Virus record (IMG/VR): IMGVR_UViG_3300020042_006260
Span: 1 to 38,224 of that record
Reading direction: 5' to 3' (one strand)
From: a virus
Taxonomy: Duplodnaviria > Caudoviricetes
DNA length: 38,224 bases
Part shown: positions 31,491 to 38,224 of the stretch, one piece after another
How the letters are laid out: each line of letters starts with the position of its first letter
Position numbering within the stretch: position 1 is the first letter of the stretch
Translations under genes and position numbers: made by a program
The notes under the pieces: generated by a model
The model's input: the letters and a program-made list of their open reading frames with translations, nothing else
Told to the model about the DNA's origin: nothing
Databases searched by the model: none

Positions 31491-32936
31491 ATGGATAATT
31501 ACTACAAATTCGCTGAGAGGCAAGCAGACAGTTTTGTAAACTGGGCAGAGATTGGTAAGGGTCTTACTGATATGATCCAGACAGAGGTGAAAATCCGTGA
31601 GGACAAGAAGGCCAACATAGATAAGGTAACTAGAGAAAATTTAAAGACATTAGCAGACTCACCTACAGGTCAGCACGAGGGTATTAATACCTGGACACTT
31701 AAGTATGCTGATGATGCAAGGCAGGCTATCCTATTGCAGGACAAGCTATTGAAGCAGGGTCTGCTAAAGATGAAGGACTACACCATCATGAGACAGAATT
31801 TAAATGATGGAACGGATGAATTGTTTAGTACTGTAAAGGGGTATCAGCAGGTATTCAAAGAGAAGATGGACCGCTTAAACAGCAATGATCCAGCTAATAA
31901 ATCTCAACAACTTGAAGTAGACTTAATGTCTATGATAGAAGGATTCTCAGATTTCTCTAAGTCAAAGGTGTTAATTGACCCAACTAATTTCTCATTAAGT
32001 GTTGGCATAATGGAGCCTGATCCTGAGAACGATGGTGTGCTTAGGGTTAGTAAGGAGGTCGCTACAACAAGCTTCTTAAAAAAGGTTCAGAACATGAAGT
32101 TTAATTACTTTGATTCTGAAGCAGCGGCTACGCAGACATCTAAAAATATAGGCAGTTATCTGACTACTGTAATTGGAGAGGGAACTAGATTAGAAGGATC
32201 AACCCTTACTGTTGAGGATGCATTAGCAAAGCCTGAGACAGAGAAATATATTCGTCAAAAAATAAAGTCTTTACTAAGTAATCCATATAATGTAACATCA
32301 ATACTAACTGAGGACCTTGTAGAAGATAAAGATGGAAATCCATACGTATCTAGCATATCTGGCAAAGAAGGAAACGTTATAAAATATGCTTTTAATAGTG
32401 AGTCAAATTTACCAGTTGCTATTCCAACTGAGGAGCAGATGAAGGCAGCTGAGGATTACATGTATGGTATGATTGTTTCTCAAGTTGATTACAAAAAAAT
32501 AGAGGGAAGGTATTCAAAGCCACAGCCTAATGTAGGAAGAGCTGAAGAGAAACCTACTGGCCCAAGTATTGATATTCAGAATACATACATATCAAGGGTT
32601 AAGGAAAAAACAGGATTAGCTAAAGAAGCTTTTGGTCATTCAGGTTCCACAACTGCCGGAAATCTTCAATCAATTATTGCTATGGTGGTTCCTGGAGCTC
32701 CTATTGGTGTTGTAACAGACGAAAAGGTAGATGGATTAGTTCATTTAAAAAATGGAGATCAGATTATTAAATCGTTTAATGTGTATAAGATTGACAGACC
32801 AACTCAGCAAAAATATTTAGATGAATTTACAAAAATCATTTCTAATTTAGCAGGCACAGATGGGATGTATGATTACCTTTCAAGAACCGGGGGAGTACAG
32901 CAATCAGGTGGAGCTTCACAATTTAATCCTAAATAA
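31491..32936 (+). CDS. Putative internal virion / ejection protein
   Basis: 481-aa helical protein (VNWAEIGK..TD); stop overlaps the giant ORF start (TAATG). Confidence 0.6.
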   Translation: MDNYYKFAERQADSFVNWAEIGKGLTDMIQTEVKIREDKKANIDKVTRENLKTLADSPTGQHEGINTWTLKYADDARQAILLQDKLLKQGLLKMKDYTIMRQNLNDGTDELFSTVKGYQQVFKEKMDRLNSNDPANKSQQLEVDLMSMIEGFSDFSKSKVLIDPTNFSLSVGIMEPDPENDGVLRVSKEVATTSFLKKVQNMKFNYFDSEAAATQTSKNIGSYLTTVIGEGTRLEGSTLTVEDALAKPETEKYIRQKIKSLLSNPYNVTSILTEDLVEDKDGNPYVSSISGKEGNVIKYAFNSESNLPVAIPTEEQMKAAEDYMYGMIVSQVDYKKIEGRYSKPQPNVGRAEEKPTGPSIDIQNTYISRVKEKTGLAKEAFGHSGSTTAGNLQSIIAMVVPGAPIGVVTDEKVDGLVHLKNGDQIIKSFNVYKIDRPTQQKYLDEFTKIISNLAGTDGMYDYLSRTGGVQQSGGASQFNPK

Positions 32937-35900
32937 TGAACGAACAGGCTTTAAATTATTCGTATGAACTATTCAAGAAGGATGGCTATACCGGAACACT
33001 TGATCAGTATAAACAACTTATAAGTACAGACAAACAAGCTCTTGATTATTCATTCAATCTATTTAAGAACGATGGATACTCTGGAAGTTTGGATGATTTC
33101 AATGGACTTATTAGCCCTATGGCTGAGACGCCTCTTGTTCAATCACCTATTGAGCCAGTAAAAAAAAAAGATACGGGATTACCATCTGTGGATGGTGGTT
33201 CGGAGCCTGCAAAGTCTGATGGCTTAGAGTCTCTTGCTGTTAAAGTTCAAGATGAACGTATATTAAATAAGAAACCTAGAGTAGAGAGACCTATAGTTTC
33301 TAGTGAGTCAATTAAGGCTGATCCTGATCAAATTGACTTTGATAGTAAGGTTCAGAAACAAAAGGTTTCTGCTCCAATGTCTTATTCAAATATTTTTGCA
33401 AAAACAATAGCAGATCTTCCATCAGACTTAGCTGAAACTTGGTCTGTTGCATCAGCATTTATAGAAAGACAGCTTGGTAAAGCCGGGGTCCCTGGGGCTA
33501 ATCCTAATTTAACAGCTAAGGATATCTATTTTTATAATGTAAGTGATGATTGGAGAAAATATACCGATGAAGTTTTCCCTACTAACCAAGAGGATAGATC
33601 TACATTTTTAGGTGGTGTTGTTTCTGGGCTAGGACAGGTTGTTCCAATGGTTGTGTCTGGAGGTATATCAGCCGTATCAAAAGGTAAAGCGGCTATGGAT
33701 ATAGCAAAGACTGCATTAAGTACCGGAACAAAACTTACTCCATTTATAAAAATGGGTAAGGATATAGCAAGTCAAGCAGCATCTCCAGCGGGATTAATAG
33801 GTGGATCTCAAATGTCTTCAGCAATGTATAGAGAGGCTATAAATTCTGGAGCAACAGAAGATCAGGCGCAGAAATATGCTATTGAAAACTTCTTTGTTGG
33901 AACAGTTGTGGAGTCACTTCCAATACAGTCAATGTTCTCAAGAATGTTAAAGAAGGAACCTACTGCAAATATTTTGAGAATATTAAAAGAAGGCGGTATT
34001 GGAGCAGGTCAAGAGGCGATAACAGAGATGTGGCAAACGACTTATTCTAACTGGTCTGCCGAAAGAATATATGACTTTAATAGAGAGATGCTAGATGGTG
34101 TTGGCGAAGCTGGAGCAGTTGGTGGCACTGTTGGATTTATATTAAATGCATCATTGAATGCATTATTAGGAAGAAGAGCTAGAGTTAAAACAAAGGAAGA
34201 GGGAGAAATTTTAGATAAGTCAATAGATGAGGTTAAGTCAAAAATAAATACTGTAAATACAAACAATGAAAACATATCATCTGTTGCTGAGGAACTAGAT
34301 TCTATAGAGCCAATTGTTTTAAATTACGGAGACTCTAAATACTTTTTTGCTAGAGATAAATCTGGCAGAATGGAATTAGCTGATGAACCTATGCTTGAAG
34401 ACCAAGCAAAGTCAATGTCTAATATGCTTGGAAAAGTTTATAAAGGACTTGAATTTTCTATTGAAGAGGTGGCATCTAATGATCCATACACTCCAGTAAA
34501 ATATAATGTTATTGCTAACGAAAAAATAAACGAACAACAAGATGCCATTCAAAAGCAAGCAGCAGGTGAAGTACCTGTACAGCCAGGAGCCACAGTTAGC
34601 CAAGAAGTGGCGCAAGGAGAACCCCAAGCAGAACCTAAAGGCGTTACCAAAGAAGAAGAAGTAAACATTGAAAGGAAGGCAGAAAACAAAAACACTGAGG
34701 TAAAAAATGTCTCATTTAATGAAGAACAAACAACTGTTAATGATGAGGGTATTTTTGAATTAGCTTTTGAAGGACCTTTATTAGATAATTATGATTTTCT
34801 ATCACAAGGAAGTGAGAGCAGGGTTTACTTGAGTAAAGATAAGAGTCATGTAATAAAATTATCAGAGCCTTACACTTCTAAAGACCCTAATGTTTATGAA
34901 AAAAGAGTTACGACTGGATTATTAAAAGATATATTTGGTAACTCTGGTGTAGAGGTTGTTGGGTACTATGAATATAATGGTACAAAAAATCCAATATTTA
35001 GACAGGACTATGTAGAGGGTCAGCCTCTAACGGAAAATGAAGTTGAAGATTATCTAAGAAACAATAATAAAGTTGTTGAGATTGATAATAAATTCTACAC
35101 TAAATACAATGACGTACTATATAGAGTATCTGATTTTGAAAACAATTTAATCAGAGATAACAGTGGTAAGGTGGTTCCAATTGATTTGAATATTTCTGAA
35201 GTAAAAGATAGTAAGATTAATGATAAGTATGATTCAGAGGTATCTGCATTACAACCTCAAGTCGTTGCTAAAGAAGGTCAAACCCAAGAAGTAGTAGATG
35301 TATTTCATGGAGGGTCAGTTAAAGATATTCAAATTGCATCAATAAACAATCCACTATATGTTTCAGAATCTGAATCTCAATCTGCTGCCTATGCAAAAGG
35401 AAATCAAGGCAGTGTTGCTAAATTTAAAATAGATAAAAGTAAAATAGCAAATGAAGATGAGGTAAGATCTGTTATTAATGAGTTAGGATTAAAGCCGAAA
35501 GATGAAAGTTGGTCAGTAGATGAGTTGAATATATACGAACTTATTGATCCGAATTTTGATACTGCTATGTCTGAAGAATCTATCAATAATCTTTTTGGAG
35601 AATTAGAAAGAAGAGGATACGGTGGTGCTGAATTCGTGGGTATGAATATCGAGACCTTAAAAAATGACATCAACGATATTGTAATATTTAATCCTAAGTT
35701 AGTTGCTCAAGAAGGTCAAGTAGAAGTATCACCTGTATCTCCTACTCAGCAGTTAGATTTAGAAGGAGAGGTAGCCTTACTTGAGCAGTTACTTGCACAG
35801 GAGGAGACTGCACCTACTGTATCCGCTGGTATATCAATATTAAGTGATACTGATGTACAGGAATTGAGAAATAAAACTCAATCAAGATCTCAACAAGCCA

Positions 35901-38224
35901 CAACAAAACAAGAGAAGGACTCTGCTAACGCAAGAATAAAGATTATTGATACAGCTAAGAGGGCCATTAATACTTTGAGGTCTGTGTTCCCTGAGATTGA
36001 CATTGTATTACATGATGATCAGGGTAGCTATAACGCTGCTATGTTAGAAGTAAGTGGAGTAGAGGGATCAAAAGGTAACTTATTTTTAGATACAACACCT
36101 GATGGAAAAAGTACAGGCAGAATTGATATCAACTTATCAAAGGCTGATGGCAGAACAGTAGCTCATGAGATTGCACATGCCATACTATTAAAATCTTTTG
36201 GGGATAATTCAAGCTTGTTCAATGACTTTAGAACAAGACTATCTAAGGTACTTAATACAGATGCAAACAAGCAGTTAAATGATTTTGCTTCTAGGTATGT
36301 AGACCCTAATACAGGACAGCTTCTAGATGTAAACCACGAGGAGTTCTTGGCTGAATTAACTGGTATGTTAGAACAGCAGGAAACAAATGTATCTGTGACT
36401 ACAATGCAGAAGATAGCTGCGTTGATTAATGAGTTTGTGTCTAAGATTACAGGTGGAAAGTTCAAACCGTTTGAGGACACTAAGAATACCAAGGATGTAG
36501 TTGACTTCTTTAATACTATCTCTGGTGCTATCAGAGAAGGTAATGAGATACAGCAACTAAATAGTCAAGAGCCATACACTTCAGGTGTAGCACTACCTGT
36601 AATTAACCCTAATGAATTTGTTGGCAAGAAGTTTAGATCTAAGCTAGACATAGGGGATTACAAATTCCCATCCGGCATAGACATTCTTAGAATAGCTAAT
36701 CTTCCTATAAAGACTTTAACTGAATTGGTTAGACAGTATGAAGGTAGAGTTGTAATCATTACAAGTGATGCGACTGGTTATGGTGTTGATAAAAATGGAG
36801 ATCCTATCCTAGGTGGTTTTGGATTTGCATCTAATGAAAAGAATGTTAGCGATGGTATAGGATTTGCAAGCGTTAGTACCGGCACAGTAAAAGGTACTTA
36901 CACAGCGGCAGAAAAAGCATACGGCACTGGTAAGACTCTTGTGCTAGTAATGATTCAGCCACCGAATACGACTATTAATAATTCCTATGGTGCTAAGTAC
37001 ATTATTAGAGGGCTAAAAGAAATAGCTGTTTCTTCTAAGGAAGAGTTAAGTAAAACCAAGGAGTCAATTAAGACCTTTATAAAAGGATCTACTGCTATTC
37101 AAGATGAATTAAAGAAGACTGATACTAATCAAAAGAGAGGATCAGAGAAAAGATTATTTGATTTTATTGATAGCATAGATGAGAATACCAATATAGAAGA
37201 GGCAGTTAAAGAGTTCCTTAATGATACCACTTTTACCATAAGAAAAGAACTTGGTCAGGGAATATTGCTAAGGAATAAGGACATAAGAACTGATTCAAGT
37301 ACTACATACAGTAAGATTGCATTTAATAGTATTGGATACAACCTATATGATTTCTTAAAGGAGTATGGTGATAATACAATACTCACAGATGATTTAATTC
37401 TAAATGATATTGGTGGATATGTTGTTGGAGGATTTGAGTTAGATGTATTGCCTAATGATCAAAGAGAAGCTCTTATAAATGAAATTCAAAATAAAGGTAT
37501 AGTACATCCATTATTCAATGCCAAACTCCCAGGTACTAATCATTTTAGATTAGATGCTCTTTATGATGTTGAGGAAAACTTTGCTCAGTACGCAGTACCT
37601 GATACTCAGATATCTTTATCTAAAGAAGAAAGAGATGCTTTGGTAAGAGAAATTTACAAAGATAATAAGTTTTATCTTGCTGAGTCTAGATCTATACCTT
37701 TAGAAAAAAGAACCTATACTAATTTAACAGTTGCGGCTAAAACTGAATTCAAGAATAGTTATTTAAAACCTAGGGGATTACTAATTGAAATAGCCCCTAA
37801 AGTCTCAACAAAGGTAGCAAGAGGAGAAGGATTTATTCCTAAAGAAGGTGCAGCTGAACAAATGTCGAAGAGAAATTTTGTAAGCAGATCTCAAATAAAT
37901 GATGCACTATCAAAGGCATCTGGATCAACACAAGTTGCAACTACAAAGGGTAGTTATAGAAAGGCGGCAAATATTTTAAAGAATATTGGTGTAGATGGTG
38001 ATGTTTTAGACTATGGAGCAGGGCTTGGATTAGGGACTGATGCCATGAGTGAGGTCCTTGATAAGCCTGTTGATTCATTAGAAATTAATCCAGAAAGATG
38101 GAAAGGAATTAGGCCAGTAAAATATACTGATGCCAATCAAATAGATAAGAAGTATGATGGAATAGTATCCTTGAATGTAGTGAATGTAGTTCCGAAAGAA
38201 GTAAGGGACTTCATTGTACTTGAC
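32936..38224 (+). CDS. Giant polyvalent (probably ejected) protein, >=1763 aa, truncated by the window end; not in ORF track
   Basis: Manually translated: open from ATG 32936 (MNEQALNYSY...) to the end. Gly-rich hydrophobic segments ~33605-34170; kinase-like 34790-35194; ART-like 35294-35695; HEIAH zincin at 36164-36178 with downstream EEFLAE; SAM-MTase VLDYGAGLG at 38003-38029. Confidence 0.9.
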   Translation, partial: MNEQALNYSYELFKKDGYTGTLDQYKQLISTDKQALDYSFNLFKNDGYSGSLDDFNGLISPMAETPLVQSPIEPVKKKDTGLPSVDGGSEPAKSDGLESLAVKVQDERILNKKPRVERPIVSSESIKADPDQIDFDSKVQKQKVSAPMSYSNIFAKTIADLPSDLAETWSVASAFIERQLGKAGVPGANPNLTAKDIYFYNVSDDWRKYTDEVFPTNQEDRSTFLGGVVSGLGQVVPMVVSGGISAVSKGKAAMDIAKTALSTGTKLTPFIKMGKDIASQAASPAGLIGGSQMSSAMYREAINSGATEDQAQKYAIENFFVGTVVESLPIQSMFSRMLKKEPTANILRILKEGGIGAGQEAITEMWQTTYSNWSAERIYDFNREMLDGVGEAGAVGGTVGFILNASLNALLGRRARVKTKEEGEILDKSIDEVKSKINTVNTNNENISSVAEELDSIEPIVLNYGDSKYFFARDKSGRMELADEPMLEDQAKSMSNMLGKVYKGLEFSIEEVASNDPYTPVKYNVIANEKINEQQDAIQKQAAGEVPVQPGATVSQEVAQGEPQAEPKGVTKEEEVNIERKAENKNTEVKNVSFNEEQTTVNDEGIFELAFEGPLLDNYDFLSQGSESRVYLSKDKSHVIKLSEPYTSKDPNVYEKRVTTGLLKDIFGNSGVEVVGYYEYNGTKNPIFRQDYVEGQPLTENEVEDYLRNNNKVVEIDNKFYTKYNDVLYRVSDFENNLIRDNSGKVVPIDLNISEVKDSKINDKYDSEVSALQPQVVAKEGQTQEVVDVFHGGSVKDIQIASINNPLYVSESESQSAAYAKGNQGSVAKFKIDKSKIANEDEVRSVINELGLKPKDESWSVDELNIYELIDPNFDTAMSEESINNLFGELERRGYGGAEFVGMNIETLKNDINDIVIFNPKLVAQEGQVEVSPVSPTQQLDLEGEVALLEQLLAQEETAPTVSAGISILSDTDVQELRNKTQSRSQQATTKQEKDSANARIKIIDTAKRAINTLRSVFPEIDIVLHDDQGSYNAAMLEVSGVEGSKGNLFLDTTPDGKSTGRIDINLSKADGRTVAHEIAHAILLKSFGDNSSLFNDFRTRLSKVLNTDANKQLNDFASRYVDPNTGQLLDVNHEEFLAELTGMLEQQETNVSVTTMQKIAALINEFVSKITGGKFKPFEDTKNTKDVVDFFNTISGAIREGNEIQQLNSQEPYTSGVALPVINPNEFVGKKFRSKLDIGDYKFPSGIDILRIANLPIKTLTELVRQYEGRVVIITSDATGYGVDKNGDPILGGFGFASNEKNVSDGIGFASVSTGTVKGTYTAAEKAYGTGKTLVLVMIQPPNTTINNSYGAKYIIRGLKEIAVSSKEELSKTKESIKTFIKGSTAIQDELKKTDTNQKRGSEKRLFDFIDSIDENTNIEEAVKEFLNDTTFTIRKELGQGILLRNKDIRTDSSTTYSKIAFNSIGYNLYDFLKEYGDNTILTDDLILNDIGGYVVGGFELDVLPNDQREALINEIQNKGIVHPLFNAKLPGTNHFRLDALYDVEENFAQYAVPDTQISLSKEERDALVREIYKDNKFYLAESRSIPLEKRTYTNLTVAAKTEFKNSYLKPRGLLIEIAPKVSTKVARGEGFIPKEGAAEQMSKRNFVSRSQINDALSKASGSTQVATTKGSYRKAANILKNIGVDGDVLDYGAGLGLGTDAMSEVLDKPVDSLEINPERWKGIRPVKYTDANQIDKKYDGIVSLNVVNVVPKEVRDFIVLD
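32945..33115 (+). repeat. Tandem 30-aa repeat at the N-terminus of the giant protein
   Basis: QALNYSYELFKKDGYTGTLDQYKQLIS / QALDYSFNLFKNDGYSGSLDDFNGLIS. Confidence 0.85.
33160..33201 (+). promoter_or_regulatory. Candidate -1 programmed frameshift signal
   Basis: A10 run (GTA AAA AAA AAA GAT), 6-nt spacer, then stem GGATTACCATC-TGTG-GATGGTGGTTC. Confidence 0.55.
34542..34664 (+). CDS. Nested +1-frame small basic protein (40 aa) inside the giant ORF
   Basis: MPFKSKQQVKYLYSQEPQLAKKWRKENPKQNLKALPKKKK*; A-rich leader AAAAAATAAACGAACAACAAG; resembles standalone MPFKS..Q...L....P..A..W small phage proteins. Confidence 0.7.
   Translation: MPFKSKQQVKYLYSQEPQLAKKWRKENPKQNLKALPKKKK

Follow-up and report, generated by a model that had tools for sequence, protein, structure and literature searches.

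A gene hidden in a second reading frame as a likely recombination joint beside a variable domain slot in a phage polyvalent protein

A giant protein of the phage analysed here carries a kinase and a predicted ADP-ribosyltransferase (ART) domain one behind the other, bordered by short sequences that resemble the 3' end of a small gene hidden in another frame of the same DNA. How do enzyme domains come to sit, in frame, between copies of the tail of an overprinted gene? An earlier sequence-only reading had described the layout as tail A, kinase, tail B, ART, tail C, and had taken the dual-coded segment for an anchor at which effector domains are added, stacked, or excised. Relatives carry nothing or other enzyme domains at this slot, so the hidden gene is likely a shared recombination joint.

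The DNA analysed (the window, 38,224 nt of an IMG/VR record) is the structural half of a podovirus-like phage, with terminase, portal, capsid-region, and crAss-muzzle-like genes. The terminase shares 44% identity with Flavobacterium elemo phages. Labelled sequencing runs with this region are mostly freshwater metagenomes, and no RNA dataset occurs among the runs listed as holding it. Among cultured phages no close relative turned up, and a single environmental GenBank genome gave a 50-nt match. Below, L identifiers denote loci or contigs, P carrier proteins, X sequencing runs (as contigs), and G genomes of relatives; X3 and X4 are possibly one data set.

Downstream of the terminase, portal, and crAss-muzzle-like genes and of a gene assigned to a PHROG 'virion structural' family, ORF calling gives a giant gene (32936..38224; + strand, as for all features below) of at least 1763 aa that continues past the window's end. 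We predict that it encodes a virion or ejection protein, and its position and the polyvalent family model suggest that the product is probably injected with the phage DNA. It combines several disparate domains: Kinase-PolyVal, an ART-fold domain, an HExxH motif, and, at the window's end, a weak methyltransferase match (E 0.09). By this domain content and by its context (terL, portal, and structural PHROGs upstream, the terminase-portal virion setting of such genes) it is a polyvalent protein, a type described from phages and conjugative elements (Iyer et al. 2017, PMC5512222). Two other features of the gene lie away from the array. A second sharp mosaic border occurs at 37886, just before the methyltransferase match, with 97% identity to L021 and L064 from there onward (37886-38224). 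Near the gene start (33152-33220), a 68-nt island, perhaps another conserved element, is 88-92% identical in relatives with otherwise unlike N-terminal regions.

The kinase cassette (34664..35254) holds a Kinase-PolyVal domain at about 34784-35188. This identity, proposed from the letters alone, is borne out by Pfam PF18762 (E 1.4e-10; 41.9 and 47 bits, above the curated cut-off of 27). Nucleotide identity to L149 is 81.5% over 34510-35248, the kinase region, and a kinase query against the viral_contigs collection returned no match. The domain sits within a short wrapper with a DIE.RR-like start (34664-34690) and an IN.KYD.EL..L-like end (35216-35254). These ends recur around other modules; the wrapper is also present in L021, L172, L059, L060, and P0003, with little or other content, and its end motif occurs eight times within 400 aa after the nested-gene motif and zero times elsewhere. 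The wrapper is possibly a second level of insertion site.

The second domain (35294..35701) is a predicted ART related to ART-PolyVal, on the evidence of 141 homologues (mostly within giant proteins), Pfam matches of the family, and a structure model. The original ART assignment holds as a prediction through the family, 18 of whose 30 aligned members match ART-PolyVal (PF18760) at E ≤ 0.1 (best E 2.7e-15), and through the fold, although the window's own domain has no Pfam match at E ≤ 0.1 and falls short of the curated PF18760 cut-off. The model (pLDDT 95) has ART folds as its top matches, but the scores are modest, with Z 6.9 for a cyanophage pre-ejectosome chain and Z 6.8 for an anti-CRISPR protein, presumably AcrIF11. 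All Foldseek matches fall short of E 0.001. H5 and Y22 are invariant in ART family A1, and sequence inspection places a D before the last strand. The term 'ADP-ribosyl' has no occurrence in the available passages of the A4 ejectosome paper, so the pre-ejectosome match gives no independent support. Inside the ART domain, a 35-nt piece (35363-35397), of CRISPR-spacer length, is matched by unrelated contigs in X1, X3, and X4 with loose ends on both sides. The module downstream of the array (35729..36565, with the HExxH motif at 36164, aa 1077) has 81-86% nucleotide identity to L002, L021, L036, L037, and L064, and in relatives with an empty slot it lies directly behind the primary tail.

The nested gene (34542..34664; MPFKSKQQV.., 40 codons, basic product) is overprinted in the +1 frame of the giant ORF and forms a conserved DNA island. 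It has a weak match to phrog_1375 (E 0.006), and the nested protein search gave weak matches alone (E ≥ 0.01). Its primary tail, A (34634..34663, codons ~31-40), is in frame in the giant ORF and, in +1, terminates the nested ORF with NLKALPKKKK and a stop. The window's short A allele is a recent 9-nt in-frame deletion: a near-identical strain in X1 (record 8) has 9 extra nt in A, at window position 34649, that restore the longer tail. L149 has 12 nt more in this region. B reads NLKSLLKKVKPKK and a stop in +1 and is an in-frame copy of another tail allele (..KKVKPKK, stop). It spans 35253..35298, where 35255-35293 had been quoted; it scores 24.1 bits (PWM) on a tail profile built without the window and 29.5 bits with nhmmer, and matches the primary tails of L002 (89% over 46 nt) and L075 (40/43).

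C (35702..35728) is a shorter, decayed copy, contiguous with the downstream module and interrupted by a stop in +1 (nhmmer 12.1 bits). It matches the primary tail of L099 and the bases after it, has a 3-nt gap that is also found in L022's copy, and marks the point (35702) at which blastn alignments to L037 and L099 begin. All three sequences lie where the sequence-only reading had put them, in the frame of the ORF starting at 32936, but the extent quoted for C (35693-35728) is correct only from 35702. The first ~9 nt (35693-35701) are the ART domain's own end, because that native end, including the equivalent of these bases, occurs in unrelated carriers and already resembles the tail start. 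It is common to the window, L150, L151, and P0001, and the native end of the kinase wrapper resembles the tail start as well.

Are these resemblances more than compositional? A, B, and C form the top direct-repeat family of the giant ORF, and the identities first reported (17/18 for B and C, 13/18 for A and B) are as claimed, with 20/24 at best for A and B. Identity of 13/18 is found for 780 pairs of segments inside the giant ORF, and 25 codon shuffles gave means of 0.36 pairs at 20/24 and 0.08 pairs at 17/18. The A/B match is at chance level and the B/C match borderline when taken pairwise; significance comes from the relatives' profile, whose matches are absent from the controls. The enclosed DNA had also appeared AT-rich. 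GC is 0.301 and 0.318 in the cassettes against 0.366 and 0.382 in the flanks, but 37000-37750 is also low (0.310), and a codon-position check gave cassettes little different in GC3 from the upstream part; in six of the eight loci with strong copies the enclosed DNA is below its own ORF's GC. Mis-assembly is an unlikely source of the array, because one X1 contig spans it (34613-37500, with six differences and the 9-nt insertion in A); X1 may be close to the window's source.

Scans of IMG/VR for the start of the nested gene gave at least 143 matches (123 distinct, 110 after dereplication, including the window); the pattern scan covered at least 120 of an estimated 220 stretches. The tail profile (36 nt) was built from 106 loci, the window excluded. 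Among the matches listed, 79 loci are long (at least 350 aa downstream), and eight of these hold one strong extra copy each (≥15 bits), which in every case lies no more than 900 nt downstream and in the register of the host. No profile match reaches 10 bits at any of 63,714 in-register positions upstream or of 317,104 positions off register, and codon shuffles give a mean of 0.05 matches per shuffle. Results from nhmmer are consistent with the profile and also recover C, with 14 matches at ≥12 bits and a shuffle mean of 0.2 such matches per 284 kb. That count leaves out a match in L003 at offset 96, which is the locus's own primary tail behind a premature stop; matches of 8-15 bits in L004, L038, L052, L059, L060, L067, and L087 may be compositional, and we do not class them as copies. 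A protein-level scan yielded nine matches of ≥14 bits, with tail codons kept at 82 of 89 positions where 36 are expected, and the copies therefore descend from the tail as DNA. Profile, allele matching, and codon retention together uphold the proposal that B and C are copies of the nested gene's 3' end.

The copies cover the last 27-60 nt of the nested gene (about 27 nt in C, about 60 nt in L068), and 7 of 10 are clearly closer to another locus's tail than to their own. Foreign-allele copies with allele-specific ends and the bases that follow pair L072 with L061, L075 with L055, and C with L099. The poor rank of the window's A as a match is inflated because of its recent 9-nt deletion. For 6 of 10 junctions, some other locus carries the copy's following module immediately after a primary tail; two further junctions show this weakly and two do not, and no empty-site relative was found for L008 or L085. 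A search with the C-core pattern found L022's contig and one unrelated scaffold-like gene (L156) and nothing else. Since the copies are mostly closer to another phage's allele, they appear to be recombination scars rather than parts of a built array. In L003, L164, and L175, which have the same slot module, the nested gene stops at codon 30, and its coded tail may be dispensable. L003 differs from L164 and L175 in upstream flank and tail, and because the tails differ we do not count the shared stop as evidence.

As had been anticipated, domain content varies, with slots ranging from empty to two domains before the same downstream module. The distance from the motif to the window's downstream module is 47-51 aa in empty slots (L036, L064, L133, and L177) and 405 aa in the window. 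Fourteen configurations fit the pattern, L003 and L178 loosely. Among the enclosed domains are one of a toxin-type ART family (L037), GNAT (L085), and ParB (L022), besides unnamed modules; relatives' slots also carry LPD23, and 12 of 79 slot regions have a Pfam match at E ≤ 0.001. A C-type junction follows the ART in the window, ParB in L022, and another ART in L037. P0011 has the tail-ART-tail unit at 86% identity without the kinase, and in an X5 contig a kinase 85% alike runs into a tail of another allele. In L149 the nested gene precedes the same kinase as in the window and no tail copy follows, and the filled slots of L002, L021, and L172-174 have no copy either. The notion that tail copies mark domain boundaries applies to the eight of 79 loci with a strong copy, but most filled slots have no second copy, and copies are optional.

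The ART domain, proposed as a cassette bounded by the nested gene, is so bounded here but also moves without this anchor: of 96 full-length carriers of the ART, 77 have no nested-gene motif and nine have the ART directly behind it. Flank similarity around the ART in these 96 proteins is modestly above the null (a score of ≥35 in nine, against 2%) and may be compositional. P0001 and P0002 represent a different giant protein whose ART, 90-92% identical to that of the window, precedes the DAIQ motif and has no tail copy behind it. In L150 (2416-3450) and L151 (2427-3900), near-identical in-frame linker repeats of their own, in three and four copies, flank the same ART-like domain, and the DNA fetched for these two loci holds no nested MPFKS gene. 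In L023-L028 (4001-4399), giant proteins of other phages have the ART-like domain, bounded in the same way, within their DFDDTL domain, which we take to be HAD-like; these carriers are marine phages.

Breakpoints fall where the sequence-only reading had expected them, at the tail. Among pairs of loci sharing at least 300 nt upstream, 38 of 47 lose homology at nested-gene nt 90-150, including pairs at 83-94% identity, and of pairs sharing the downstream side, 6 of 10 begin within 40 nt of its start. Across 101 loci (5050 pairs), 44 pairs share the upstream flank only, 8 the downstream flank only, and 2 both; these counts are not independent, and downstream linkage is defined by 8 pairs. Within the nested gene, similarity goes with the upstream flank over nt 45-90 and with the downstream flank over nt 90-120. 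The claim that the dual-coded segment is an anchor stands in that breaks occur at its tail; the conserved island, however, is the whole nested gene, and both flanks reassort. Over its ~125 nt, this gene stays similar in many phages that otherwise differ. In X5, summed contig depth is about 1000 on the nested gene versus about 40 beside it, and many co-occurring phages therefore share the island.

We propose, with a probability of roughly 0.7, that overprinting keeps one DNA island alike among co-occurring phages and that short-homology recombination, likely of the Sak type, joins domain ends to the tail and leaves scars. Coding in two frames would be what keeps the island's DNA alike, and ordinary crossovers within it, often near codon 30, would exchange the whole downstream part. 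Occasionally, a domain's own end, tail-like over about 8-14 nt, would anneal to the tail of a second phage, giving the gene, the domain, a tail copy, and the second phage's module in that order; two such rounds would give A-kinase-B-ART-C. At a later stage domains could be lost or stacked through the copies, which would act as secondary joints. Injection of the protein is likely, as is modification of host proteins by its domains.

Dedicated site-specific machinery is not needed for such events, and the catalyst would likely be a phage Sak-like annealing protein with an exonuclease. The window holds the structural half and not the replication half, and Sak is deduced from relatives: the two closest by terminase, G001 (terminase 97% identical to the window's) and G002, encode a Sak-like annealing protein. 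Overall, the Sak family occurs in two of five relatives searched and in one of four near-complete ones, the other three near-complete relatives giving no match. Besides the Sak-like protein, G001 (L154 9036-10637) encodes an exonuclease VIII-like protein, a chaperonin resembling GroEL, and two DNA methyltransferases. Rad52-like recombinases (Red-beta, Erf, and Sak) act on short, diverged homology (De Paepe et al. 2014, PMC3945230) and could account for exchange of this kind, a general process with no tie to an overprinted gene. The minimal pairing segment of Red-beta is 23-27 bp (PMC3945230), and copies of 27-46 nt are near this minimum, so later excision is plausible; joins over 8-14 nt, below it, would be rare events. 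The excision joints that had been expected in metagenomes did not appear: no A-B, B-C, or A-C joint and no excised circle occurs in the contigs of X1, X3, X4, X5, X7, X8, and X9, contigs being prone to drop rare variants. One candidate excision, a 'skip 194' joint in X5, was rejected; it has unread sequence in between and fits a diverged kinase.

Alternatively, a dedicated hotspot could exist, at which a nick or integration near codon 30 inserts domains or tail-plus-domain circles and duplicates the tail, in the manner of integrons or of the T4-type PeSLs discussed below. Seven of the eight strong copies begin, by inspection, near codon 28-32, linkage changes from upstream to downstream near nt 90, and empty, single, and double forms precede the same module. 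As in an integron-like system, cassette borders repeat a conserved element and slots exist both empty and filled, but the second copy is often missing, copy lengths differ, and 7 of 10 copies are of another allele. Moreover, no stable hairpin forms at A, B, or C (z -0.5 to -1.5), and a scan of 29 ORFs (≥90 aa, outside the first 20 kb) from G001, a complete relative, found no integrase. We consider the hotspot unlikely. The start of copies near codon 30 is not fully accounted for by random annealing and may reflect chance likeness among linker ends, a hotspot after all, or a loss of repeats that were longer and less stable. In a bolder form, which we think rather unlikely, the overprinted gene would be a community-wide, built-in attachment site of Flavobacteria-type phages. 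A hotspot near codon 30 would capture domains and release tail-plus-domain units, the injected protein would be an in-frame, integron-like effector array, and the overlap would be kept partly for this.

A peptide role is also conceivable, in which copies are kept for their EPQVV..EEGQ..EV-like product, either because it forms a flexible linker or because the HExxH peptidase cuts there and frees the domains. This would explain retention only and is compatible with a recombinational origin. All copies are in frame, the HExxH motif is at hand (aa 1077), zincin-like processing has been proposed for polyvalent proteins (PMC5512222), and the giant proteins of L150 and L151 use other linker repeats around modules. 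Against this, there are no peptide-only look-alikes, since matches keep the tail's rare codons (the 82 of 89 positions above); most slot domains have no copy behind them, and C is without the EPQ part. We regard this as decidedly unlikely.

Local tandem duplication of the tail by slippage, with the gap later filled with foreign DNA by unrelated illegitimate events, is very unlikely. Copies in L068 and L079 match their own tail best, and that in L037 nearly so, which fits local duplication, and a weak copy in L087 lies 51 nt after its own tail; the preponderance of foreign alleles, some with allele-specific ends and following bases, speaks against slippage as the general explanation. Chance resemblance among E/V/K/Q-rich linkers, or mis-assembly, is hardly credible: the pairwise identities and the weak nhmmer matches would allow for chance, but profile matches are missing from all controls, one X1 contig spans the array, and P0011 repeats the ART unit.

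In CDI VENN and Rhs junction motifs, a conserved motif precedes exchanged toxin domains. The locus resembles such polymorphic toxin cassettes (PMC3482391) in that variable enzyme domains are exchanged directly behind a conserved motif; there, however, a C-terminal toxin is replaced from silent cassettes that come with immunity genes. We saw no C-terminal variable toxin, immunity gene, or silent cassettes here, where domains are internal in a continuous ORF and can stack. T4-type PeSLs (Arbiol et al. 2010, PMC2839356) are likewise short sequences, conserved for another function, that serve as a repeated recombination point shuffling neighbours. They are described as intergenic promoter-terminator elements that move whole genes, with circles shown (PMC2839356), whereas the anchor here is protein-coding in two frames, its units are in-frame domains, and the contigs hold no circles. 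By these comparisons, the anchor resembles T4 PeSLs and polymorphic-toxin junctions without their defining features.

The closest match in content is with the polyvalent proteins themselves: a giant multidomain phage protein with Kinase-PolyVal and ART-PolyVal-like domains, and GNAT, ParB, and LPD23 in relatives. Iyer et al. noted this kinase in Bacteroidetes phages, raised possible cassette recombination for Verrucomicrobium, and argued for repeated accretion of polyvalent domains (PMC5512222). Their account, as far as consulted here, names no junction sequence or anchor such as those described above, and the words 'linker' and 'overlap' have zero occurrences in its main text. Our search of mostly open-access literature found no account of an overprinted gene as an anchor for domain shuffling.

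The recombination reading would thus offer polyvalent proteins a concrete route for in-frame gain and shuffling of domains. The overprinted gene would fix the DNA of a short stretch across very different phages, and so provide a shared crossover point beside a variable slot, at which scars of past joins persist. Gene overlap would then favour modular exchange, if no more than as a by-product, and searches with the motif may bring to light candidate phage effector domains in metagenomes.
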